47,574 nucleotides of DNA from Escherichia phage RobRod40: sequence record OR896835.1; one strand, written 5' to 3'. The notes beneath the pieces are model-generated. The model was not told the origin of the DNA, ran no database searches, and saw only the letters and a program-made list of their open reading frames with translations. A program made the translations under genes and the position numbers. Positions within the stretch are counted from its first letter, which is position 1, and every line of letters begins with the position of its first letter. Shown piece by piece: positions 1 to 43,063 of the stretch.

Positions 1-1572
1 ATGAGTGATTTAATCGTCTGGGATGAACTGACATACGCAGAAAAGATGGCTATCAAGGCCATCTCTGAGCATAGTTTCGAGGGGTTCTTGCGGTGCTTCT
101 TCCAGATAACTCAGGGTGAGAGATTTAAAATGAATTGGCATGCGAAGTACCTTTGCCGCGTCATAGATGAGATTCTTGAGGGTAAGAGAAAGGACACCAT
201 CATAAACGTAGCTCCCGGATCAGCCAAAACAGAACTATTTAGCATTCACTTCCCTGTATATAGCATGATTAAGATTAAGAAGGTCAGGAATCTTAGCTTG
301 TCATTCTCTGACTCATTGGTTAAGCGTAACTCTAAGCGCGTTCGTGACCTGATTAAGTCAAAGGAATTCCAGGAACTATGGCCATGCTCCTTCGGAACGT
401 GCAGGGATGACGAGATTCAGGTACTGGATGAGAATGGTAAAGTTAGGTTTGAATCTATATCTAAGGCGATGGCTGGACAGGTGACGGGAAGTAGGGGTGG
501 ATACATGACTGACGATTATAGTGGCTGCATAATGCTGGATGACCCACTAAAACCTGATGACGCGCTAAGTAATGTAAGAAGAGAGGCTGTCAATATGCTT
601 CTCAAGAACACAATTCGTTCACGTCGAGCTAGCTCAGTAAAGGGAAAGGAAACGCCAATACTTGCCGTGCAGCAAAGACTTCATGTTCTGGACACTAGCA
701 ACTTCATGGAGTCAGGGAAAATGGGCATCAAGTTCGACGTAGTGAAAGTTCCAGCCATAGTCACAGAGGATTACGCCGACACGCTTCCTGAGTGGATCAG
801 GCAACAATTTATTGATGATGTTCTTTCATCACCATTTGTAGAGCGTGATGGTGTTAAGTATTACAGCTACTTTCCGGAAAAGGAGTCAATAGAAGACTTG
901 ATGGCCATGCGGGATGCTGACCCGTATACATTCCTAAGTCAGTACGCTCAAGAACCTGTAGCACTAGGTGGCAACCTAATCAACGTAGATTGGTTCCAGA
1001 GAATTAGCGATACGTTCAGGAACCCAGTTAAGTACGATTATAGATTCATAACTTGCGATACTGCGATGACTACAAAGAGTTATAGTGACTTCTCCGTGCT
1101 TCAGTTGTGGGGATATAAGGATGCTAAGATTTACCTGATAGACCAGCGCAGGGGCAAATGGGAGGCACCAGAGTTGGAAGCTGAACTACTCGATTTTGAG
1201 AAGAAATCAAGGGCAACCAGTCAGTCAGATGGCATCCTTCGAAAAATTATCATCGAGAAGAAAGCTTCTGGTATCGGCCTGATTCAATCGGCAGGTAGGG
1301 TAATGCGAACGCCGATAGAGCCATACGTTCCGGATAACGATAAGCTGACTCGCGTAATGAGCGCATTGCCACAAATTAAAGCTGGTAACGTAGTTCTTCC
1401 AGAATCAGCACCATGGCTAAGCGGATTACTTACGGAGATTGCGGCCTTTACGGCAGACGACTCACATAAGCATGATGACCAAATTGACTGTCTAACAATG
1501 GCGGTAAACCTTGTTCTCAATATAGCAGATGATCCAAAATCAAGAATGCTTCGCCTTGCCGGAATAAAATAG
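1..1572 (+). CDS. terminase large subunit
   Basis: 523-aa ORF starting at window base 1; P-loop-like segment VAPGSAKT near N-terminus; sits directly upstream of portal and (circularly) downstream of terS-like gene and HNH at window end. Confidence 0.8.
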   Translation: MSDLIVWDELTYAEKMAIKAISEHSFEGFLRCFFQITQGERFKMNWHAKYLCRVIDEILEGKRKDTIINVAPGSAKTELFSIHFPVYSMIKIKKVRNLSLSFSDSLVKRNSKRVRDLIKSKEFQELWPCSFGTCRDDEIQVLDENGKVRFESISKAMAGQVTGSRGGYMTDDYSGCIMLDDPLKPDDALSNVRREAVNMLLKNTIRSRRASSVKGKETPILAVQQRLHVLDTSNFMESGKMGIKFDVVKVPAIVTEDYADTLPEWIRQQFIDDVLSSPFVERDGVKYYSYFPEKESIEDLMAMRDADPYTFLSQYAQEPVALGGNLINVDWFQRISDTFRNPVKYDYRFITCDTAMTTKSYSDFSVLQLWGYKDAKIYLIDQRRGKWEAPELEAELLDFEKKSRATSQSDGILRKIIIEKKASGIGLIQSAGRVMRTPIEPYVPDNDKLTRVMSALPQIKAGNVVLPESAPWLSGLLTEIAAFTADDSHKHDDQIDCLTMAVNLVLNIADDPKSRMLRLAGIK

Positions 1573-1612
1573 CACTTTATGCAAAGAATAAAGCTCACGG
1601 ATGAGCTAACAT
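1569..1612 (+). promoter_or_regulatory. conserved promoter-like module (variant ATAGCAC-ttt-ATGCAAAG, 22 bp, TAACAT)
   Basis: terL stop TAG embedded in motif; spacer holds palindrome GCTCAcggaTGAGC; precedes HNH paralog 1. Confidence 0.5.
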
Positions 1613-1635
1613 AATCAAAAAAAAGAGGGTGTATT

Positions 1636-2112
1636 ATGAATTGGGCTGAATTTTTTAGATACGAAGATGGAAATCTGGTAAGGGTTATCACAACCTCAAG
1701 TAGAGCTATTGAGGGCATGGTTGCTGGAAGCTTGCCTGGCAATGGCTATCTGCACATAAGAATAGGCGACAGGCGTGTAAAAAACCATCGCATAATTTGG
1801 GAGATGCACAATGGAAGGATACCAGAAGGGATGGAGATATATCATATCAATCACATAAAGACAGATAACAGGATCGAGAATTTAAGGCTCGTAAGTCACA
1901 AACAGAACCTATCAAACGCATCGCTTAGGTCCGACTCGTCAACTGGTACGAGTGGCGTTAGTTGGAACAGAAACAGGCAGAAGTGGCACGCTTATATAAA
2001 GTCTAACTACAAGAGGATGCACATAGGATTTTTTGATTCCTTTGATAACGCCGTAGCAGCAAGAAAGAAAAAGGAGATTGAACTGGGATTTCATGAGAAT
2101 CACGGAAAATAG
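1636..2112 (+). CDS. HNH homing endonuclease (paralog 1)
   Basis: MNW..F.Y.DG N-terminus, WEMHNG and HINHIKTDNRIENLR motifs; RBS AAGAGGG upstream; shares these motifs with three other ORFs in window. Confidence 0.85.
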   Translation: MNWAEFFRYEDGNLVRVITTSSRAIEGMVAGSLPGNGYLHIRIGDRRVKNHRIIWEMHNGRIPEGMEIYHINHIKTDNRIENLRLVSHKQNLSNASLRSDSSTGTSGVSWNRNRQKWHAYIKSNYKRMHIGFFDSFDNAVAARKKKEIELGFHENHGK

Positions 2113-2152
2113 CACTAATTGCTAAACATCAACACCAAGTATGGAGTATAGT
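2109..2152 (+). promoter_or_regulatory. conserved promoter-like module (ATAGCAC-taa-TTGCTAAA, 22 bp, TATAGT)
   Basis: Stop TAG of HNH embedded; followed by TACCTCACGAAAACGAG leader and RBS. Confidence 0.6.
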
Positions 2153-2183
2153 TACCTCACGAAAACGAGAGGAGAAAAGACAA

Positions 2184-2570
2184 ATGAAAAGCATTTCAAA
2201 AGCTGTATATCTTGGCAACACTAATGGGGAGTATTATGGTTTTACTGTAGGTAATACATATAGTGTTAAATATTTTGAAGCTATAAGTGAAAACTGTTTT
2301 TGGTGTTCAGATGATGATGGTGTTTACCGATATGTCAAAAACGGACCATTGCACAAGTTTAAACTAAGTGATGAGGATGGCTATTTTGTAACTGAGGCTG
2401 AATGCGAAGTCATGCCCCCTATAGACGATAAAAAACCCGAGCTTAGATATTACATCAACGGACATGAGGTTGACGTGATTGAGTTCGGAAATGTTGGCCG
2501 TACTGTATATGAGCTTGATCGGGATGGCATAAAGTGCGACACAATCAAGTTCGAAGTAAAATTCGAGTAA
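2184..2570 (+). CDS. hypothetical protein (accessory gene between HNH and portal)
   Basis: 128-aa ORF with RBS GAGAGGAG; own upstream promoter-like module and downstream terminator. Confidence 0.6.
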   Translation: MKSISKAVYLGNTNGEYYGFTVGNTYSVKYFEAISENCFWCSDDDGVYRYVKNGPLHKFKLSDEDGYFVTEAECEVMPPIDDKKPELRYYINGHEVDVIEFGNVGRTVYELDRDGIKCDTIKFEVKFE

Positions 2571-2592
2571 CCATAAAAGCTATGATAAACTA

Positions 2593-2616
2593 AGCCCCTA
2601 TATGGGGCTTTTTTAT
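2593..2616 (+). terminator. rho-independent terminator
   Basis: GC hairpin AGCCCC-tata-GGGGCT followed by T-run. Confidence 0.7.
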
Positions 2617-2627
2617 TGGAGAAAAAC

Positions 2628-3881
2628 ATGGTCAAGACAGACAGCTACGCCAATATCTTTCTCGGCGGTAGTGATGGTAGTGAGATTTACGGAAGTTTAC
2701 AGAATCAGGCACCAACAATTCTGGCCTCGCTTTACGCGGATAATGCTCTAGTGCGTCGAATTATCGACACAATCCCAGAGACGGCATTGGCGGCAGGATT
2801 CCATATTGATGGTATTGATGATGAGCCTGCATTCTGGTCGCGCTGGGATGATTTAGAAATGACGCAGAATATTAACGATGCATGGTCATGGGCTAGGTTG
2901 TTCGGCGGGGCTGCTATTGTCGCTATCGTTAAGGACAATAGAGCGCTAACAAGTCCGGTAAGAGAAGGAGCGGAACTTGAAACTGTTCGCGTTTACGACC
3001 GTACACAAGTAAAGGTTCAAACTCGCGAGGAGAATCCACGCAATGCACGTTTTGGTAAGCCACTTACCTATCGCATCACCACTAACGAAAGCGATATGTT
3101 TTACGATGTGCATTACAGCCGCATTCACGTCATCGATGGCGAGAGAATTCCTAACGTAATGCGTCGGCAAAATGATGGCTGGGGCCGCAGCGTTCTTTCC
3201 AGTGATATTCTTGACTCAATCAAGGATTACACCAATTGCGAACGACTCGCCACCCAGCTGCTGAGACGCAAGCAACAGGCGGTGTGGAAAGCCAAAGGTC
3301 TGGCTGAGCTGTGTGATGATAGCGAAGGATTTGGTGCCGCGCGCTTGCGACTTGCTCAGGTAGATAACAACAGTGGAGTTGGTCAGGCGATTGGTATTGA
3401 CGCGGAATCTGAAGAATATAGCGTTCTAAACTCTGATATTGGCGGGATTGATGCGTTTCTGGACAAGAAGCTCGATAGAATCGTTGCACTGAGCGGTATT
3501 CATGAAATAATCCTGAAGAACAAGAACGTTGGCGGTGTATCATCAAGCCAGAACACGGCTTTGGAGACATTCCACAAGCTAGTTGACCGCAAGCGTAATA
3601 GCGAGCTACTTCCTATTCTTGAGTTCTTAATCCCGTTCATTGTTAATGTGTCTGAATGGTCAGTGGAGTTTAACCCATTAGCTCAGGAGTCAAGCAAGGA
3701 TAAAGCGGAAATTCTGGAGAAGAACGTAAACAGCATCGCGGCACTAATTGCAGCTGGAGCTATGGATACTAACGAGGCTCGTGATACACTACGCACTATC
3801 GCGCCAGAGATTAAGATTGGTGATGGTGATATTGAGGCTCCGGAACAAGAACCCGCAGAGGAGGTTGTGATTAATGAGTAA
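2628..3881 (+). CDS. portal protein
   Basis: ~417-aa ORF after terL; ATG at 2628 preceded by GGAG (ORF-track start 2616 is TTG); size and position typical of siphovirus portal. Confidence 0.7.
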   Translation: MVKTDSYANIFLGGSDGSEIYGSLQNQAPTILASLYADNALVRRIIDTIPETALAAGFHIDGIDDEPAFWSRWDDLEMTQNINDAWSWARLFGGAAIVAIVKDNRALTSPVREGAELETVRVYDRTQVKVQTREENPRNARFGKPLTYRITTNESDMFYDVHYSRIHVIDGERIPNVMRRQNDGWGRSVLSSDILDSIKDYTNCERLATQLLRRKQQAVWKAKGLAELCDDSEGFGAARLRLAQVDNNSGVGQAIGIDAESEEYSVLNSDIGGIDAFLDKKLDRIVALSGIHEIILKNKNVGGVSSSQNTALETFHKLVDRKRNSELLPILEFLIPFIVNVSEWSVEFNPLAQESSKDKAEILEKNVNSIAALIAAGAMDTNEARDTLRTIAPEIKIGDGDIEAPEQEPAEEVVINE

Positions 3882-10211: not shown

Positions 10212-10602
10212 ATTATCTATAGCAGCCAGAAAATATGTTAATGATTTGCTGGTGAGCAACTTCCCTGTCAGATATCCAGTATCCTGGGAAAATGTTTCTT
10301 TCACTCCTCCAGCAGATGGCTCTATCTGGCTAAAGTATGACTATATCGAGGTTGATACCGTAACCTACGGACTTAGCAGGAAGTGCAAATACTATGTAGG
10401 AATGGTGCAGGTTTCTGTTTTCTTTAGCCCTGGTACTGGCATTGACAAGCCGAGACAAATCGCTAATCAATTGGCAGAATCTATCGTTGATGGTACAATG
10501 CTTGACAGCGGGACCATTTATGAGTCTGGAGTTGTTAACCCGGTTATCAAATCCAAATCTGGGTGGTTTATCCCGGTTCATTTTTATGTTCGTCTAGACT
10601 AG
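10201..10602 (+). CDS. putative tail terminator-like protein
   Basis: GTG start preceded by GGAGG; overlaps upstream stop; position before major tail gene. Confidence 0.4.
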   Translation: MHYELSIAARKYVNDLLVSNFPVRYPVSWENVSFTPPADGSIWLKYDYIEVDTVTYGLSRKCKYYVGMVQVSVFFSPGTGIDKPRQIANQLAESIVDGTMLDSGTIYESGVVNPVIKSKSGWFIPVHFYVRLD

Positions 10603-10610
10603 GAACTAGC

Positions 10611-11096
10611 ATGAAAGATTTCTTAAATTCTCTTTACGATTATCGCGATGGAAAGATTTACAAGAAGGGCGGTGATAAACCATGTGGTTACGGTAAGACA
10701 AATGGCTACGTTCAAACATACGTTTCAAAGACTGGTAAGCGATATGTTCATAGATTGATCTGGGAAATGCATAATGGTGAAATTGCATATGGAATGCAGA
10801 TAGATCACATTAATGGTGTTAGGGATGATAATCGAATTGAGAATTTAAGATGCGTGACCGTAACTGATAACAGAAGAAATGCTGGAACCAGGTATCGCTC
10901 ACGTAGATTTCCTGGAGTTAATGGAGTAAACTACAACAAGCGCGATGATCTTTGGCATGCAATTATTTCTGACAAAGGAAGAGCAAGGAGTCTTGGTCAT
11001 TATAAGAGTTTTGTCTCAGCTTGCGAAGCAAGGATTGTCGCTGAAGTATTATTGGGATATCACGCTGGTCACGCAATGCGGGATAGCGTTTATTAA
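10611..11096 (+). CDS. HNH homing endonuclease (paralog 2)
   Basis: ATG at 10611 after AGGA; HRLIWEMHNG and IDHINGVRDDNRIENLR motifs; inserted between tail-completion and major tail genes. Confidence 0.85.
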   Translation: MKDFLNSLYDYRDGKIYKKGGDKPCGYGKTNGYVQTYVSKTGKRYVHRLIWEMHNGEIAYGMQIDHINGVRDDNRIENLRCVTVTDNRRNAGTRYRSRRFPGVNGVNYNKRDDLWHAIISDKGRARSLGHYKSFVSACEARIVAEVLLGYHAGHAMRDSVY

Positions 11097-11105
11097 TCTA
11101 ACTTA

Positions 11106-11780
11106 TTGAATTGGAGGTGTATTATTGCCCATCTCAGCAATGGCACGCAGGTCTTCGTAGAAGGCTCTCGCGGAGCTGCAATTGACGTAACTGCAATTTC
11201 TAACTCAGTTACCCCTGTTTTAACTGTATCTGACGCATCTGGATTGGTTGTTGGTGATTACCTTCTTTTCACCTCTTCTGCCTCCACGCTTCTGGCTGAT
11301 AAGCAAGTTCGCGTAACTGCAATCACTGGTACGTCAGTAACTGTTGAAGGTATTGATACCTCTAGCACTACAAAGTTCCCAGCCGGTTTAACTGGTGAGG
11401 TTGTTAAAATCACCTCTTGGTTCGAAGTTCCGTGTGTTCAGGACGTATCTACTGATGGCGGCGAACAGCAGTTCGTTAACTTCCAGTGTTTGTCCGATGA
11501 CCGTGAACAGCAGATTCCGACTTATAAATCTGCCGTAACGAATACCTTCACCTTTGCTCACGAGTACACCAACCCGGTCTATCCGGTCCTGCGTAACTAC
11601 GATGAGTCAGGTCAGGTTGTCGCGATTCGCCTGTTCGTACCTCGAGCTAGCGAAATGCGTTTGCAGTCCGGCACTATCGCTTTCAATGACACCCCCACCA
11701 TTGGTGTTAACGAAATCGAAACGGTATCCATCGCAGTATCCATTCGTGGCCGCCTGTCCTCTGTGGCAGCTGAAGTTTAA
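11106..11780 (+). CDS. major tail (tube) protein
   Basis: ~220 aa; strong terminator immediately downstream; position before chaperone and tape measure; start uncertain (no in-frame ATG/GTG near GGAGG at 11113-11117). Confidence 0.6.
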   Translation: MNWRCIIAHLSNGTQVFVEGSRGAAIDVTAISNSVTPVLTVSDASGLVVGDYLLFTSSASTLLADKQVRVTAITGTSVTVEGIDTSSTTKFPAGLTGEVVKITSWFEVPCVQDVSTDGGEQQFVNFQCLSDDREQQIPTYKSAVTNTFTFAHEYTNPVYPVLRNYDESGQVVAIRLFVPRASEMRLQSGTIAFNDTPTIGVNEIETVSIAVSIRGRLSSVAAEV

Positions 11781-29960: not shown

Positions 29961-30004
29961 ATTATGGCACATCCAATTACTTACTCTTTAGCTTTTCGTG
30001 CTGC
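29961..30004 (-). promoter_or_regulatory. conserved promoter-like module, variant (CAGCAC-gaa-AAGCTAAA, 22 bp, CATAAT) on minus strand
   Basis: Overlaps 3' end of regulator gene; palindrome GGATGTgccataatcgGTACATCC spans -10; precedes HNH paralog 3. Confidence 0.5.
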
Positions 30005-30454
30005 TTCGTTAGCGGCCTTAATCTTTCGCCATGATCGACACTCTGGCTTGGTGGCTAGTTCAGCTTCAGTAACCACACGCAGCATGTGACGCTTTTTGCA
30101 CCGAAGTGTCAGCGGTTTTCCGTTACCATCGAATTGCAGGTCTGGTCGGCAGAATGTTGCGCGAAAGCCTTCTCCATTTCGCTTGTAGTAGTTGTGCGAT
30201 AGCTGGGCACCACGCGCAGAAATCATACCGCGCTTAAACCATTCTTCTACAGCCTGCGGTGTTACCTTTAGCTGCTTTGCGATATTCGCCTTTGTGCCGA
30301 AGAAATCAAGAACTATCTCTAGTCGAGCACGTAATCCAGCCCTTACCTCATCTTTCAAAACGTAGTAGCCTGAAGGTCGTTTGCGTTGCTTCTTATCTTG
30401 TGTGCGGACCGTTCCGTTATTACCGTTAGTCGTTCGCTTGTCAACTGAATTCAT
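29981..30454 (-). CDS. putative HTH DNA-binding regulator
   Basis: Candidate helix-turn-helix TKANIAKQLKVTPQAVEEWFKRG; basic N- and C-termini; GAGGTG RBS; divergent from helicase operon. Confidence 0.5.
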   Translation of the reverse strand: MNSVDKRTTNGNNGTVRTQDKKQRKRPSGYYVLKDEVRAGLRARLEIVLDFFGTKANIAKQLKVTPQAVEEWFKRGMISARGAQLSHNYYKRNGEGFRATFCRPDLQFDGNGKPLTLRCKKRHMLRVVTEAELATKPECRSWRKIKAANEAARKAKE

Positions 30455-34842: not shown

Positions 34843-35973
34843 ATGGCAACTGCAAAAATCACCAACGAACAATTGCGCGAAGAGCTTGCAAATGGGATGA
34901 CCAACAAAGCAATCGCAGAGAAGTATGGAATGAACATTCGCAACGTTGAATTACGTCGTAGTAAATTGGCTAAGAGTGGAGAATTGCACGGAAACCCTGG
35001 CATCAAGAAGTTAGTTCCAGATGGGTATATGGTTAAGGGAACTTCAACAATGATTGATGCGGATGGTAACGAAAAGATTCGCTGGGTCAAAACTTCTATA
35101 GATAATGAGCGCCTTGAGATTTTGATGGATCAGGCTCGTGAGGCATTCTGTTCTGATTTACCAAAAGCAGATGCGGTAATCCACTCAGGCAATGAGATTA
35201 ACTCTGAATTAATGACTCTTTACCCGATTTTCGATATCCATATTGGTATGATGGCTCATCGTCATGAATCTGGTGAGAATTATGACACGAACGCGGCAGA
35301 GAAATTAATGGGATCATATTTTGACCATGCAATTTCTGTATCACCTGCGTCAGAGAAAGCCGTGGTTTTAGTTGGTGGTGACTTCCTTCACTCTGACGGA
35401 TTGGAGGCTGTAACCCCAGCGAGCGGGCACTGCCTTGATCAGGATAGTCGGTATGCTAAGTTAGTTTATGTTGCGATTCGCTCAATTCGTGGTGCAGTAG
35501 AGAAGATGCTTAAGAAGCATAAGAATGTAGAGATTCAGATTATAGAGGGAAATCATGACCAAAGTGGTATGATTTGGCTTCGCGCGGCAATGGCTGCATT
35601 TTATGAAAATGAGAGTCGGGTGTTTGTTGATACCAGTCCGGCAATCATGCACAAAACACGATTTGGCTCAACACTACTTGGTTACACGCACGGTCACACG
35701 ATGAAGAAGGCTGAGGGTCGACTCGCAGCAATGGCGACAGACTACCGCAAAGACTTTGGTGAATGTGAGTTTGTTTACTGCCATTCCGGGCATTTTCACC
35801 ACGCAACTGTCACGGAGTGCACGCTTGGCATTGATGAAGTTCACCCAGCGCTGGCTAGTAAGGATGCGTATGCGGCCCGTGGAGGTTGGCGCTCATATCG
35901 TCAAGCGGCTGCAATAATCTATCACAAGGAGTTTGGCGAGGTTGGTCGCCACATTTATCGCCCAGGTATGTAA
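34843..35973 (+). CDS. HTH domain + metallophosphoesterase fusion protein
   Basis: N-terminal HTH-like MTNKAIAEKYGMNIRNVELRRSKL; calcineurin-like motifs GDFLHSD, GNHD, GHTHGH. Confidence 0.6.
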   Translation: MATAKITNEQLREELANGMTNKAIAEKYGMNIRNVELRRSKLAKSGELHGNPGIKKLVPDGYMVKGTSTMIDADGNEKIRWVKTSIDNERLEILMDQAREAFCSDLPKADAVIHSGNEINSELMTLYPIFDIHIGMMAHRHESGENYDTNAAEKLMGSYFDHAISVSPASEKAVVLVGGDFLHSDGLEAVTPASGHCLDQDSRYAKLVYVAIRSIRGAVEKMLKKHKNVEIQIIEGNHDQSGMIWLRAAMAAFYENESRVFVDTSPAIMHKTRFGSTLLGYTHGHTMKKAEGRLAAMATDYRKDFGECEFVYCHSGHFHHATVTECTLGIDEVHPALASKDAYAARGGWRSYRQAAAIIYHKEFGEVGRHIYRPGM

Positions 35974-36581: not shown

Positions 36582-37067
36582 ATGAAGCAGAAGCTAGTGG
36601 TTGGTGCTGCGACCGCTGCGGCAATATACATCGCAGCGCCGCTTATTGAGCTTGTTGAAGGCGTAGAGAATAAGCCATACATGGATATTGCTGGAATCCC
36701 TACAGTTTGCGCCGGCGTTACTGGCCCTGACGTGGTTTGGGGCAAGAATTACAGCAATAGAGAGTGCCGAAAACTTCTAGAGAAGCACATTCAGATTCAT
36801 GGCAAGTATGTTGAGGATGCAGTTACCTACCCAATAGAACCAGAGACAAGGGCGGCGTTAATCAGCTTTAGCTACAATGTTGGCGGCTCAGCGATGAGGA
36901 AATCTACTGCTGTTAAGTTAATTAACCAGGGTAAGATTGAGCAAGGCTGTAAGGCTTTGGGTCTCTGGAATAAAGCTACCATTAACGGCAAGAAGGTTGT
37001 GGTTAAGGGGTTGGTGAATCGCAGGAATGAGGAGATTAAGTTATGCTTAAGTGGATTGCAGCGTTAG
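36582..37067 (+). CDS. SAR-endolysin (GH24 lysozyme with N-terminal signal-anchor-release domain)
   Basis: Weakly hydrophobic Gly/Ala-rich N-terminal helix VVGAATAAAIYIAAPLI followed by catalytic E-x8-D-x5-T triad (EGVENKPYMDIAGIPT). Confidence 0.8.
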   Translation: MKQKLVVGAATAAAIYIAAPLIELVEGVENKPYMDIAGIPTVCAGVTGPDVVWGKNYSNRECRKLLEKHIQIHGKYVEDAVTYPIEPETRAALISFSYNVGGSAMRKSTAVKLINQGKIEQGCKALGLWNKATINGKKVVVKGLVNRRNEEIKLCLSGLQR

Positions 37068-37785: not shown

Positions 37786-39369
37786 TCACCCCAACAGTCG
37801 TGGATTAATGTAAACTTTATCACCAATCAGGCACGTATAGTTTTTCTCATCAAGCATTGGCAGTAAGTGATCTTTAATCTTTGTCATTACACCAGCCTGA
37901 GCCTCAAACGGCTTAACCTTTCGAGCCGCCTCATACAATGAACGAATACCAACTACACCTTTCCCGTTCTTGCCTTGCTTGATCAGTATATCAACCAGCT
38001 TGCTCATCTCAGCATGGTCGCCAGCGTGACCAGCAGCGTTAGCTGATGACAGATAAGTCTTACTCAGTTCCTGGAACATAATTACAGCCTCTTGCATGGT
38101 GTCGAGCTCGATCTCTCTGGACTTCTGTGGACTACCGCCATTTGGGCTGAACCAGTTGCGCACAGTGTGAAGAACAGCTGCAATCCTGATGGCCTGCTTA
38201 TCGAACTTACCCAACGCGCCACGTAACATTGTGTGTGAATACTTCCCGCCATCTGCAAGGTGAGGCTCCATCTCCTGACGCGCACGGTTTAGGTATTTCA
38301 TCGCTGAGTTGCTCACTGTCAGCTTAACATCTTGCTCATTCATTATTTCATGAACTAAAAGGAAGTAATCTGCCTTCAGCCCGCTATTAATTGGTTCGTA
38401 TGTTGAGTTGCCATTCTCATCAACGAATACGCGCTCACCAAGGAATGATTTTTCACGAACCAAAAGGAAGCGTTCAGATACACCGATACCGCGCGCACCA
38501 GCATTCATGATGGCGTTGATTGTTTCATCCTGCGCAATTACAGAGATGCAACCCATAGCAACGAAACTCATGTTATTTTCTGCGTTGGCACGCGCAATGG
38601 ATACGCTACCAGCGTCCCACGCTTTCAGTACAAGTTCGCTGTTCGTTTTCTTCGAGCCATCACCGTAAGTCATGCCAAGAAGTGAGTTGACGCTCGTTGC
38701 CTCATCCGAAATTACCGCAAAGTTGCCCTGGCGGTTGTTTATTCGCGCAAGACCTTCAGGCGTGGTATCTGATACTGGAAATACGATATCACACAGCTTC
38801 TCGAGTTTCTCCTCTAACTCCTCTTTCTCCTCAAAAAGAGAAGCCATCTCAGAGGGTGACTTTTCCTGCTTCATCTCTTTGGACAATGCAGATAGTTTGG
38901 CCATGATCTTTTTGCGCTCACGCTTTCGCACCTCATTCAGTCGCTCATTCTCAGAAATCATCGGAGCAAGGGCTAGTGAGTTGATGGCCGATTTACCCGT
39001 AGATGGTGGCTGACTGGTTACGACATATAGCGACGTTGGCTGCTGTGTGCCGTGATACTCGACAGTAAAGCGCCCAAGCATGGCAGCGGAAATACACCCC
39101 AGGAAGTGCATATAAGCTGAAGATTCGGGAAATTGAACAGAGCGAGCAATGTTAGCTGACAGTTTGCCAACAACATCAACATCATTACCGAGTGAGATTA
39201 CGGGATACTTGTCATTAGCAGCATCAATCTCTACTGGCGCTTTCCAGAATGATTGAGACTGTCGATAGCCATTGGCATTAATAGCCACTCGCAGAGGTGG
39301 AAGGTTGTCTGCGGCAGCAATTGCCATAACCTGCTCAACAGATAGTTTATCTTCGTTGAAATCAAACAT
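37786..39369 (-). CDS. P-loop containing protein (long paralog of 42539..43063)
   Basis: 527 aa; Walker A-like QPPSTGKS; N-terminal ~40 aa and C-terminal ~65 aa align with the 174-aa + strand protein; extended -10 promoter and GGAGAG RBS. Confidence 0.6.
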   Translation of the reverse strand: MFDFNEDKLSVEQVMAIAAADNLPPLRVAINANGYRQSQSFWKAPVEIDAANDKYPVISLGNDVDVVGKLSANIARSVQFPESSAYMHFLGCISAAMLGRFTVEYHGTQQPTSLYVVTSQPPSTGKSAINSLALAPMISENERLNEVRKRERKKIMAKLSALSKEMKQEKSPSEMASLFEEKEELEEKLEKLCDIVFPVSDTTPEGLARINNRQGNFAVISDEATSVNSLLGMTYGDGSKKTNSELVLKAWDAGSVSIARANAENNMSFVAMGCISVIAQDETINAIMNAGARGIGVSERFLLVREKSFLGERVFVDENGNSTYEPINSGLKADYFLLVHEIMNEQDVKLTVSNSAMKYLNRARQEMEPHLADGGKYSHTMLRGALGKFDKQAIRIAAVLHTVRNWFSPNGGSPQKSREIELDTMQEAVIMFQELSKTYLSSANAAGHAGDHAEMSKLVDILIKQGKNGKGVVGIRSLYEAARKVKPFEAQAGVMTKIKDHLLPMLDEKNYTCLIGDKVYINPRLLG

Positions 39370-41304: not shown

Positions 41305-41345
41305 TTATTTTCTCCAGTTCTCTTCACTCATTTCGATGAGCTAAC

Positions 41346-41389
41346 TATATCCTCCCCGACTGATAATGTCTTTAACAAAAAGTGCTATT
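41346..41389 (-). promoter_or_regulatory. promoter-like module on minus strand (ATAGCAC-ttt-TTGTTAAA, ~22-23 bp, TATAGT-like)
   Basis: Leader TAGCTCATCGAAATGAG; adjacent to inverted-repeat operator array; precedes minus-strand operon. Confidence 0.5.
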
Positions 41390-41407
41390 CGTTGGATTTA
41401 CGTATTG

Positions 41408-41470
41408 TTGCAGATATTGCAATGATTCACATGATTATTGCACATAAAGCAATATTGCTTCAGATGCAAT
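41408..41470. promoter_or_regulatory. inverted-repeat operator-like array
   Basis: TTGCA-N5-TGCAA (41408-41422) and two abutting ATTGC-N7-GCAAT sites (41437-41453, 41454-41470) just upstream of minus-strand promoter module. Confidence 0.4.
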
Positions 41471-41630
41471 GATGTTTTTGATTGTTGCGAAAATTGAAAT
41501 GAAGTGGTGAGTGAGTGAATGAAAGATGGATGGACTACCATACAAGTTGATTTTTATTCTGGCTGAGCCATTTTCATGCTTACGCGTAAACGAAATAACT
41601 AGCTGTATGCCATTTGCGTCCGCGGGAAAT

Positions 41631-41660
41631 CGTATACGCATGATACGCAGCGATACGCAC
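41631..41660. repeat. iteron-like direct repeats (3 x ATACGC at ~10-bp period)
   Basis: cgtATACGCa / tgATACGCag / cgATACGCac. Confidence 0.5.
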
Positions 41661-41728
41661 TAGTTACATTAAAACATCCTTATATAACAACCATTTATCT
41701 ATATTATTATTATTATTATATATATATG
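41661..41728. repeat. AT-rich module CTAGTTACATTAAAAC...(TAT)6(AT)n, copy 2
   Basis: Homologous to 23345-23405; (TAT)6 at 41702-41719. Confidence 0.6.
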
Positions 41729-41947
41729 TATGCTATGTAAGCCATGTCATATGGTGAAGTTGATATATTTCTATGATTTATTCCTACACATGTAGGAATG
41801 AGACTACTTTGTAGGAATGAAAAGGCATATATAGGCATGAATCTCCAAAAAGTTGGCATACATGGCACACGCAGCCATTTACACCAGTCATGTCGAGCAC
41901 TATTCCCAAATAAACGTAGGCAATCGCCATTGATACACAAATTAACG

Positions 41948-41976
41948 TTGACTTACAGGTTAACCATCAATATAAT
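41948..41976 (+). promoter_or_regulatory. near-consensus sigma70-type promoter (TTGACT-17-TATAAT)
   Basis: Canonical hexamers and spacing upstream of 42015 operon; followed by ATCATCGAAACAACAAACGA leader. Confidence 0.6.
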
Positions 41977-42014
41977 GACAATCATCGAAACAACAAACGA
42001 AAAGAGGATATACA

Positions 42015-42539
42015 ATGAGCGTTAAAACATTGGGTGCAGTTATTCGATATATGATTGACCAGGCGATTGAGTCTGAAGATAAGTCATTCACAGTACGGCT
42101 TCGTGATATCGCAAGAGCGACAACGGGAATAAACCCAAAATCATTAAGTGATGATGAGATAGTTGAGTTCGAAAAGGTCAAGGGCCTTAAAAGTTCATAC
42201 ATTTATAATACAGCCTCCAGGGTTCAGCGATTGCAGGAACTAAACCTCAGGGCAAAATATGAGATGGTATTCGTCAATGAAGATGGCGAAATACAAAGTG
42301 GCTCTTCTGTTGTCGACGGGCTTGGTTACAGAGCAATGCGAATCTTCCTTGTTGAGGGTGCTGTGAAGCCAGTTTGCCGAGCAAGGGCCGACTCAGAGAA
42401 CGAGGCTATGGCGGTTGAAAGATTCAAGTCCAGGCTTCTTAAGCTTTCACCAAGCGTTGCCGGCCTGGAAGGTGATGAACTTAAGGGCGCTGTGGCAATG
42501 ATTAACGCCTATCAGGAAATGATTAAGGAGACCAAATAA
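42015..42539 (+). CDS. hypothetical protein (first gene of + operon beside iteron region)
   Basis: 174-aa ORF immediately downstream of near-consensus sigma70 promoter and AT-rich iteron module. Confidence 0.55.
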   Translation: MSVKTLGAVIRYMIDQAIESEDKSFTVRLRDIARATTGINPKSLSDDEIVEFEKVKGLKSSYIYNTASRVQRLQELNLRAKYEMVFVNEDGEIQSGSSVVDGLGYRAMRIFLVEGAVKPVCRARADSENEAMAVERFKSRLLKLSPSVAGLEGDELKGAVAMINAYQEMIKETK

Positions 42540-43063
42540 TGTTTGATTTTACCGAAGAGAGGCTGACAGATGAGCAGATTATGGGTATTGCGAAGCAGGA
42601 TGGGATTCCCCCGATACGGGTTGCAATCAATGCTAACGGGTATCGGCATGTTCAGCACCTCTGGGGTCAGCCTGATTCATCTGAAGTATACATAGATGAA
42701 GATCTTGGCGTTCTGATTAAGTTGCTCAGGAAAATGGCAAGGAACGGAAAGGGAGTATTGGGGGTGAGGTCTTTATACGAAACCGCGCGCAAGGTTAAGC
42801 CATTTGAGGGTCGCAATGGAATCATGGCGTGCATTAAGGATGAACTAATCCCCGCTCTAGAGGAAATGAATCTCGCTTGCCTCATTGGAGATAAGATTTA
42901 TGTCCACCCGGCTATCATTGATGAGTATTGGCAGCCTAACTTCAAAACTTACGAAGCTGAGCACGTTAGTAGACTACCATACCACTTACGGTACAGTGAG
43001 GAGGAGGTGGAGAGAACGATGGAGTTCTACCGGAAAGCTAAATCACTTCTGAACGGTGAATAG
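42539..43063 (+). CDS. short paralog of the 527-aa P-loop protein (lacks central domain)
   Basis: MFDFTEERLTDEQIMGIAKQDGIPPIRVAINANGYR and NGKGVLGVRSLYETARKVKPFEG segments match N- and C-terminal segments of 37786..39369. Confidence 0.6.
   Translation: MFDFTEERLTDEQIMGIAKQDGIPPIRVAINANGYRHVQHLWGQPDSSEVYIDEDLGVLIKLLRKMARNGKGVLGVRSLYETARKVKPFEGRNGIMACIKDELIPALEEMNLACLIGDKIYVHPAIIDEYWQPNFKTYEAEHVSRLPYHLRYSEEEVERTMEFYRKAKSLLNGE

Follow-up and report, generated by a model that had tools for sequence, protein, structure and literature searches.

An array of inverted repeats in the intergenic region of a T1-like phage as a candidate core of its packaging-start site

The 47,574-nt stretch analysed here, called the window throughout, is the complete genome of Escherichia phage RobRod40 (OR896835.1), a T1-like siphovirus (Drexlerviridae, Braunvirinae) whose closest record is that of Escherichia phage JeanPiccard (~88% identity). 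The record places the large terminase gene at its start. A 710-bp non-coding region (41305-42014) lies between a leftward operon, comprising small genes, a methylase and a DUF3987 helicase, and a rightward operon that leads through ~4.5 kb of small early genes to the small terminase gene terS and, across the window end, to terL and the structural genes. The non-coding region carries a compact, strongly conserved array of inverted repeats. Comparison with related phages suggests that this array is the recognition core of a pac site, at which headful packaging would start on concatemeric DNA. We put the probability of this reading at about one half, and consider a packaging-start signal more likely than a gene-control operator.

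A conserved array of four dyad-symmetric sites

The three inverted repeats to which the earlier note drew attention are all present with the sequences claimed: TTGCA-gatat-TGCAA at 41408-41422, with ATTGCAAT inside, at 41416-41423; ATTGC-acataaa-GCAAT at 41437-41453; and ATTGC-ttcagat-GCAAT at 41454-41470. The more economical description is one of four sites of the form TTGC-N7-GCAA, here named P1 to P4.

41404-41500, no strand: whole dyad array, extended half-sites approximately GATTRTTGC / GCAAYRATY
41408-41422, no strand: site P1, TTGC-agatatt-GCAA; the ESCO41 record begins exactly at its first T
41438-41452, no strand: site P2, TTGC-acataaa-GCAA; the Rtp and IMM-001 record ends fall inside it
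41455-41469, no strand: site P3, TTGC-ttcagat-GCAA; equivalent of T1 site S1
41485-41499, no strand: site P4, TTGC-gaaaatt-GAAA; equivalent of T1 site S2
41389-41407, plus strand: linker from the leftward 21-nt motif to P1, carrying GGATTTAC; 11 of 19 columns invariant
41500-41575, plus strand: terminus zone right of the array, including the G-rich, strand-biased block GTGAGTGAGTGAATGAAAGATGGATGGACTA

P4 is degenerate in its right half in the window (GAAA), where JeanPiccard, Rtp, Sd1 and ESCO41 read GCAA. The site centres lie at 41415, 41445, 41462 and 41492, giving spacings of 30, 17 and 30 bp, so that the array is symmetric about the junction 41453/41454. The G-skewed block GTGAGTGAGTGAATGAAAGATGGATGGACTA (41506-41540) follows directly, with a GC skew of +0.5 to +0.57; at its position TLS has GAGTAGTGAGTGAGTAG and T1 a G-run.

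The clustering of the dyads is beyond chance. The whole window holds five TTGC-N7-GCAA sites where 1.6 are expected; three of them lie within 62 bp, and the other two (15250 and 43639) are isolated and in line with chance expectation. Three or more sites in 65 bp occurred in 0/1000 first-order Markov genomes, and two or more in 5/1000. Six ATTGC/GCAAT pentamers per 70 bp are found at the array, the highest density in the genome, with four at the runner-up.

The block is present once per genome in 129 phage records (80-96% identity). It is 83-95% identical across Braunvirinae, Rogunavirinae and Nouzillyvirus, beside intergenic flanks that are only ~66% identical and an adjacent gene, encoding a DUF7174 protein, at 33-49%. 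Among aligned full-length relatives the array contains no indels. Searching with DUF7174 returned the loci of five known isolates, whose alignment was too divergent, while TerS as query returned nine loci. In pattern searches of IMG/VR, a degenerate two-site pattern gave, among the matches listed, apparently mostly chance ones, and a tighter P4 pattern was useful. The earlier note named absence of the palindromes from related phages as a ground for rejecting its proposal; since they are strongly conserved, this ground falls away. The array is absent from 5,426 complete E. coli genomes, in which no host or prophage/satellite copy was found.

In more distant lineages only part of the array persists. 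Most of the intergenic region of T1 (Tunavirinae; TerS 55% identical) cannot be aligned to the window, yet the T1 record start reads G/TTGCatggtgtGCAA...TTGCttagaatGCAA (TTGCatggtgtGCAA...GATTGTTGCttagaatGCAATGATTG), which forms two dyads 30 bp apart. We take these as the equivalents of P3 and P4 because a G-run and CGCCTGGTAG then follow exactly as in CJ19. An uncultivated lineage (~52-kb contigs; TerS 46-47% identical) likewise carries the P3-P4 pair, at 31-bp spacing, and like T1 retains only this right-hand pair. In IME347, P4 is perfect and the P3-like site before it degenerate. The sequence GATTGTTGC-N7-GCAATGA is kept in T1, IME347 and the uncultivated lineage, always 30-31 bp past a P3-like site. 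Klebsiella weberviruses have a degenerate P4, TTTC-N7-GCAA.

TLS lacks the dyads and has GATT repeats in their place. Just left of position 1 of its record (AY308796, ~49790-49822), two tandem AGACC-GATT-GGTCT inverted repeats lie 16 bp apart and 8 nt from a leftward 21-nt element, the position occupied by the TTGC dyads in the window phage.

The pattern of variation looks like that of a protein-binding array, because the cores vary less than the spacers, core changes are one-sided and the fold is not unusual. The minor-allele fraction is 0.040 in the core half-sites and 0.151 in the N7 spacers (permutation p = 0.0007; 8 core and 7 spacer positions per site). Core changes, counted by eye in the alignment of relatives, comprise 8 that break a pair, 3 wobble changes and 0 compensatory ones, and the single strand shows no excess folding over shuffled sequence (DNA fold z = 0.08). 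The claim that the dyads resemble protein-binding sites rather than chance repeats therefore stands, given the higher conservation of half-sites than of spacers and the fixed spacing.

The same z value, the lack of compensatory changes and a merely sub-threshold Rfam match lead us to reject a structured RNA or cruciform. The best Rfam match is the OrzO-P antitoxin small RNA (41401-41478, plus strand), at 28.5 bits against a gathering score of 60. In this alignment P1 forms the 5' hairpin and P3 plus GTTTTT the terminator, without covariation support, and the match is probably coincidental.

Evidence for a packaging-start site

Headful packaging in T1-like phages begins at a pac site, which lies at the left end of the T1 map (PMC11447400, PMC7718038), and T1, TLS, SU57 and MSK are described as pac/headful phages (PMC11447400, PMC7718038, PMC8421802). 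The left end of the T1 map corresponds to the array-bearing intergenic region of the window. Three features to be expected at a pac site are found here: the genome encodes small and large terminases of the headful type, the site occurs once per genome and, in relatives, physical ends lie at or beside it. The small terminase of the window phage is a clear homologue of P22 gp3.

46495-47001, plus strand: terS, small terminase (Pfam GP3_package 2.3e-13; PHROG 606; PDB 3P9A E = 3.6e-16)
1-1572, plus strand: terL, large terminase (54% identity to the annotated T1 TerL, 56% to TLS TerL)

The termini are those of relatives, not of the window phage itself, and are expressed as window-equivalent positions. 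Position 1 of T1 lies one base before the TTGC of site S1, equivalent to 41454, and a repeat_region, the terminal repeat, is annotated at 1..2800. For the Rtp-like phage MSK, PhageTerm gave a forward-strand terminus at 36,862 (p = 1.6e-9; PMC8421802). In the deposited sequence this terminus reads ...GATGGATGGACTA/CCATACAAG; it lies 45 nt right of the P4 centre (41537/41538), at the right edge of the G-skewed block. The record end of IME347 has the same 45-nt offset from its own P4 centre. The end of SU57, chosen from PhageTerm and an abrupt step in read depth (PMC7718038), falls at ~41555, ~63 nt right of P4. Restriction analysis placed the pac site of TLS in the homologous untranslated region (PMC11447400). 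Further record ends, in window-equivalent positions, are as follows.

41379: FP record end
41408: ESCO41 record start
41444: IMM-001 record end
41447/41448: Rtp record cut, inside the P2 spacer
41453: Rogue1 record end
41529: Rao1 record end
41573: CEB_EC3a record end

These seven ends and that of IME347 all fall inside a ~200-bp stretch round the array, a clustering far from random because such a stretch makes up 0.4% of the genome. Webervirus record ends also cluster, 47-57 nt right of the degenerate P4; we left them out as independent evidence because at least Sanco was opened by convention.

Conservation points in the same direction. So high an identity of the block beside so divergent a DUF7174 gene is typical of a cis-acting site for conserved machinery, and the P3-P4 pair survives in lineages whose TerS is only 46-55% identical to that of the window.

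A packaging series on this DNA might proceed as follows. TerS, a ring protein of the P22 gp3 type, possibly with another factor, would bind the four dyads and recruit TerL. As nuclease and motor, TerL would then make a first, imprecise cut in or just right of the array, at ~41444-41575, and DNA would enter the head rightwards, first the early-right genes, then terS/terL and the structural genes, until a headful was reached. The outcome would be the terminally redundant, partly permuted chromosomes typical of T1. Within this scheme we infer a series-initiation cut zone at 41500-41575 with rightward packaging. The direction is taken by analogy from MSK and the T1 terminal repeat, the exact cut positions in the window phage are putative, and TerS, rather than another protein, is the presumed reader of the dyads.

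Known packaging systems offer partial parallels. The window TerS is a gp3 homologue, and both P22 and the window phage would start headful packaging from a unique site. First cuts in P22 are not made at one bond; they spread over ~100-200 bp (~120 bp) round pac, and the scatter of the relatives' ends would fit such a spread. In most relatives a motif (A/G)GATTTAT abuts P1 (GATTTAC in the window phage), and GATTTAT resembles the P22 pac core AGATTTAT as quoted in PMC11447400. This match is weak evidence for pac because an 8-mer match easily arises by chance. The pac site of P22 is a single asymmetric 22-bp sequence inside terS (sequence quoted in PMC11447400). In contrast, the array consists of four dyad-symmetric 15-bp sites in non-coding DNA, ~5 kb upstream of terS.

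Arrays of short elements are known from other terminases. In the pac site of P1, the pacL-pacC-pacR region of SPP1 and lambda cosB, terminase binds a number of short repeats arranged to one side of the cut or to both. The R elements of lambda are inverted and serve as sites for a small-subunit dimer. The 30/17/30 symmetry about 41453/41454, where the ends of T1, Rogue1, Rtp and IMM-001 fall, resembles such clusters flanking a cut. However, these terminases belong to unrelated families and recognize other repeat sequences; P1 uses Dam-methylatable GATC hexamers, and GATC is absent from the array.

Several observations weigh against packaging initiation. For the window phage itself the reading is a prediction from sequence comparison and from the termini of relatives. 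Dyad symmetry suits a dimeric regulator better than a ring-shaped terminase and, to our knowledge, the one defined pac site of a gp3-type terminase, that of P22, is single and asymmetric. TerS shows no visible co-variation with the array, as the TLS protein is 49% identical to that of the window compared with 46-55% in the lineages that keep dyads, and the putative helix-turn-helix segment of TerS differs between T1 and the window phage. The termini of relatives spread over 41379-41573; for T1 position 1 and the Rtp ends we rely on the deposited records; and several record ends follow convention rather than experiment, explicitly in Sanco and perhaps in others. As relayed in PMC8421802, the Rtp authors had connected the pac site with five ATATA repeats that they predicted in T1; these repeats lie ~250 bp further right.

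T1 is a classical coliphage, a notorious laboratory contaminant and a generalised transducer. Drexler's work reportedly placed the start of T1 packaging on lambda DNA between genes P and Q. A search of lambda for T1-array-like sequence found one TTGC-N7-GCAA site (6051) and no convincing match in 40.3-43.9 kb, which is uninformative. The authors of the TLS study assigned 'AGATTT' as pac by analogy with P22 (PMC11447400), and those of SU57 stated that the pac site 'was not identified' (PMC7718038); the packaging-start sequence of the T1 family appears not to be defined in the accessible literature. A conserved candidate of four dyads, with a P3-P4 core common to at least three lineages, makes the question testable. 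For the many arbitrarily opened Drexlerviridae records it would assist in finding the correct genome ends, and it could guide the engineering of T1-like phages or transducing particles for therapy.

Alternative readings of the array

The alternative that survives best is a regulatory one, which we nevertheless consider unlikely. Here a dimeric phage protein would bind the four dyads cooperatively and control the leftward promoter of the methylase/DUF3987 helicase operon, as an upstream activator, as an anti-activator or by looping. The promoters on the two sides of the region are the following.

41344-41388, minus strand: leftward promoter; 21-nt element ATAGCACTTTTTGTTAAA (41388-41371), 21 nt, -10 hexamer TATAGT (41349-41344)
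41948-41976, plus strand: rightward sigma-70 promoter TTGACT-17-TATAAT, near-consensus with 11/12 matches

The array itself has the look of an operator. Its dyads of 15-17 bp have conserved cores and variable spacers, two of the sites abut and two are phased at 30 bp, much as lambda OR/OL contain tandem 15-17-bp dyads, some abutting, with conserved half-sites and freer spacers. Sites of dyad symmetry with conserved half-sites, as operators have, are therefore present. Among Braunvirinae the distance from the array to the 21-nt promoter element is constant at 19 bp, and the AGACC-N4-GGTCT pair of TLS is found at the same place, as lineage-specific regulators would predict. The earlier note was right to place the array upstream of a minus-strand promoter module (21-nt motif 41371-41388, -10 TATAGT 41344-41349). 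Its further proposal, that the repeats are operators of divergent promoters, is not borne out: the array lies upstream of the leftward element and ~480 bp from the rightward promoter 41948-41976. It neither overlaps nor closely flanks core promoter elements. No -35 or -10 hexamer is overlapped, promoter prediction inside the array was negative, and the sites lie 20-110 bp upstream of the leftward 21-nt element, which is about -70 to -155 relative to the start site that the -10 implies. Unlike lambda OR/OL, the array overlaps no promoter, has no cognate repressor that we could find and occupies a single genome location, to which termini map. The geometry differs in T1, whose dyads have a leftward element on either side.

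The 21-nt element, ATAGCAC-N3-TTGNTAAA, has 14 strict-pattern sites genome-wide and 20 at up to 3 mismatches. Examples of the strict pattern are as follows.

2109, 11814, 24885, 32968, 43883, 45521, plus strand: 21-nt element sites
41388, 39874, 39443, minus strand: 21-nt element sites

The elements are always co-oriented with genes, and the leftward promoter 41388-41344 is one of them. A TATAGT/TATAAT-like hexamer lies ~20 nt downstream of most, often with a conserved leader CTCATCGAAACGA. They correspond to the '21-base repeats' described, and left unexplained, for TLS, T1, Rtp and Rogue1 (PMC11447400), and look like promoters of a phage-specific class, equipped with an upstream activator or UP-like element. 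TTGC-N7-GCAA accompanies none of the 13 other strict-pattern sites. The idea that one protein might read both the dyads and ATAGCAC-N3-TTGCTAAA reduces to a shared 4-mer at a variable position of the motif (TTGC/TTGT/TAGC). The array might act on the leftward promoter as a secondary target.

No candidate regulator tracks the array. We compared co-variation with the array for TerS, DUF7174, the tail of the DUF3987 helicase, a Cro-like regulator and a 111-aa protein. DUF7174 is 33-49% identical under an array that is ~90% identical, and its C-terminus resembles that of TLS, not T1. The winged-helix-like tail of the helicase is closer to TLS, which has no dyads, than to T1, which has them. Both proteins are disfavoured as readers of the array by this comparison. 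When the whole proteome was compared, no likely DNA-binding protein turned out to be common to the window and T1 yet missing in TLS, although an unrecognised small protein may have escaped notice. Three genes had been put forward as encoding helix-turn-helix proteins. The product of 34843-35973 is instead a metallophosphoesterase-type repair exonuclease, and 42015-42539 encodes DUF7174, which has no detectable helix-turn-helix and is as divergent among array-sharing phages as stated above. The third, 29981-30454, is Cro-like, albeit below the Pfam cut-off, but has no TTGC dyad at its own promoter.

A dimeric factor other than the terminase, either a small protein of the phage that has so far escaped recognition or one supplied by the host, for example CytR, could bind the dyads and gate both packaging and the leftward promoter. 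We regard this as improbable. Such a factor would license terminase at the adjacent cut zone while controlling the promoter of the replication helicase operon. This would make the array a switch through which T1-like phages link packaging to replication and transcription.

The array might also form part of a replication origin, with the dyads binding an initiator such as the DUF3987 helicase or its truncated paralogue, though this seems slightly less probable still. T1-like phages have no assigned origin (PMC11447400), and the region is bordered by the helicase gene on one side and, on the other, by a paralogue that combines the N- and C-terminal domains of the helicase. The same region contains three direct repeats GATACGCA (41633-41660) and a stretch of 21% G+C (41680-41759), both conserved across genera. 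However, the dyads are inverted repeats at least 190 bp from the AT-rich stretch, and the direct repeats beside that stretch are better iteron candidates. Nor does the helicase follow the array: its C-terminal domain reads 'ARKVKPF' in both the window and dyad-less TLS and 'CRNVTPF' in dyad-bearing T1, and overall the window protein is 73% identical to that of TLS compared with 56% for T1. An origin role would not explain the clustered termini. The interval 41625-41760, in which the AT-rich stretch carries (TTA)n and (TA)n runs, is itself a candidate origin, and the layout of direct repeats followed by AT-rich DNA recurs in T1 and Rtp with different repeat sequences.

The weakest alternative, which we hold very improbable, is that a host regulator binds the dyads and ties phage expression or packaging to nucleoside levels, the cytidine repressor CytR being the most plausible candidate. 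The TGCAA/TTGCA pentamers are like CytR half-sites (octamer GTTGCATT), which occur with flexible spacing under the consensus TGCAA-N2-3-TTGCA, TTGCAA or AYGTGCAAC-N10-13-GTTRCATT (PMC3454398); the P2/P3 junction reads aGCAA-ta-TTGCt, P1 contains TTGCAA, and T1 reads GTGTGCAAC-N13-GTTGCTTA. Natural CytR operators are flanked by CRP sites, but no CRP site (TGTGA-N6-TCACA, up to 2 mismatches) lies in or beside the array, and a CRP/CytR sandwich was rejected for this reason in spite of the similar half-sites. The strict N7 spacing and the TTGC...GCAA orientation, opposite to that of CytR operators, depart from the CytR optimum. TLS, which has no dyads, infects the same host, and the E. coli genomes contain no similar block. 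Consensus sites for Fur, DnaA and IHF, sought by eye, were also rejected, as the relevant bases (e.g. TCACA in the P1-P2 linker) are not conserved in relatives.

Neighbouring genes and minor features

The first rightward gene begins 39 bp downstream of the rightward sigma-70 promoter, which is probably the immediate-early promoter; a TTGAC-type -35 is seen at this promoter in the aligned Braunvirinae relatives as well. In the DUF7174 protein (42015-42539, plus strand), the C-terminal ~40 residues (ERFKSRLLKLSPSVAGLEGDELKGAVAMINAYQEMIKETK) are near-invariant among Braunvirinae and the first ~130 residues far more divergent. This split could mark a mosaic recombination boundary or a conserved interaction domain.

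Next to it, a 174-aa protein (42539-43063, plus strand) is a paralogue of the DUF3987 helicase (37786-39369, minus strand), consisting of the first ~45 residues of the helicase fused to its last ~85 (the possible winged-helix-like tail) without the ATPase core. It is found in many Braunvirinae, with no counterpart found in T1, and could regulate or compete with the helicase.

Between the AT-rich stretch and the rightward promoter (window 41777-41840), TGTAGGAATGA has two direct copies (41791 and 41810) and an inverted one (ATTCCTACA, 41780), with a conserved AAAAGGCATATATAGG after them. The first two of these copies form an 11-bp hairpin that a scan flagged as terminator-like, and TGTAGGAAT is conserved across genera.

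Two sequences from a distant T1-like lineage contain a pair of TTGC-N7-GCAA sites 31 bp apart, at 11094-11139 in both, inside a 254-aa open reading frame (10449-11213) located ~3.6 kb downstream of terS. From its position in the gene order, the reading frame is probably a head-morphogenesis gene, and the pair within it may be due to chance or represent a second site.

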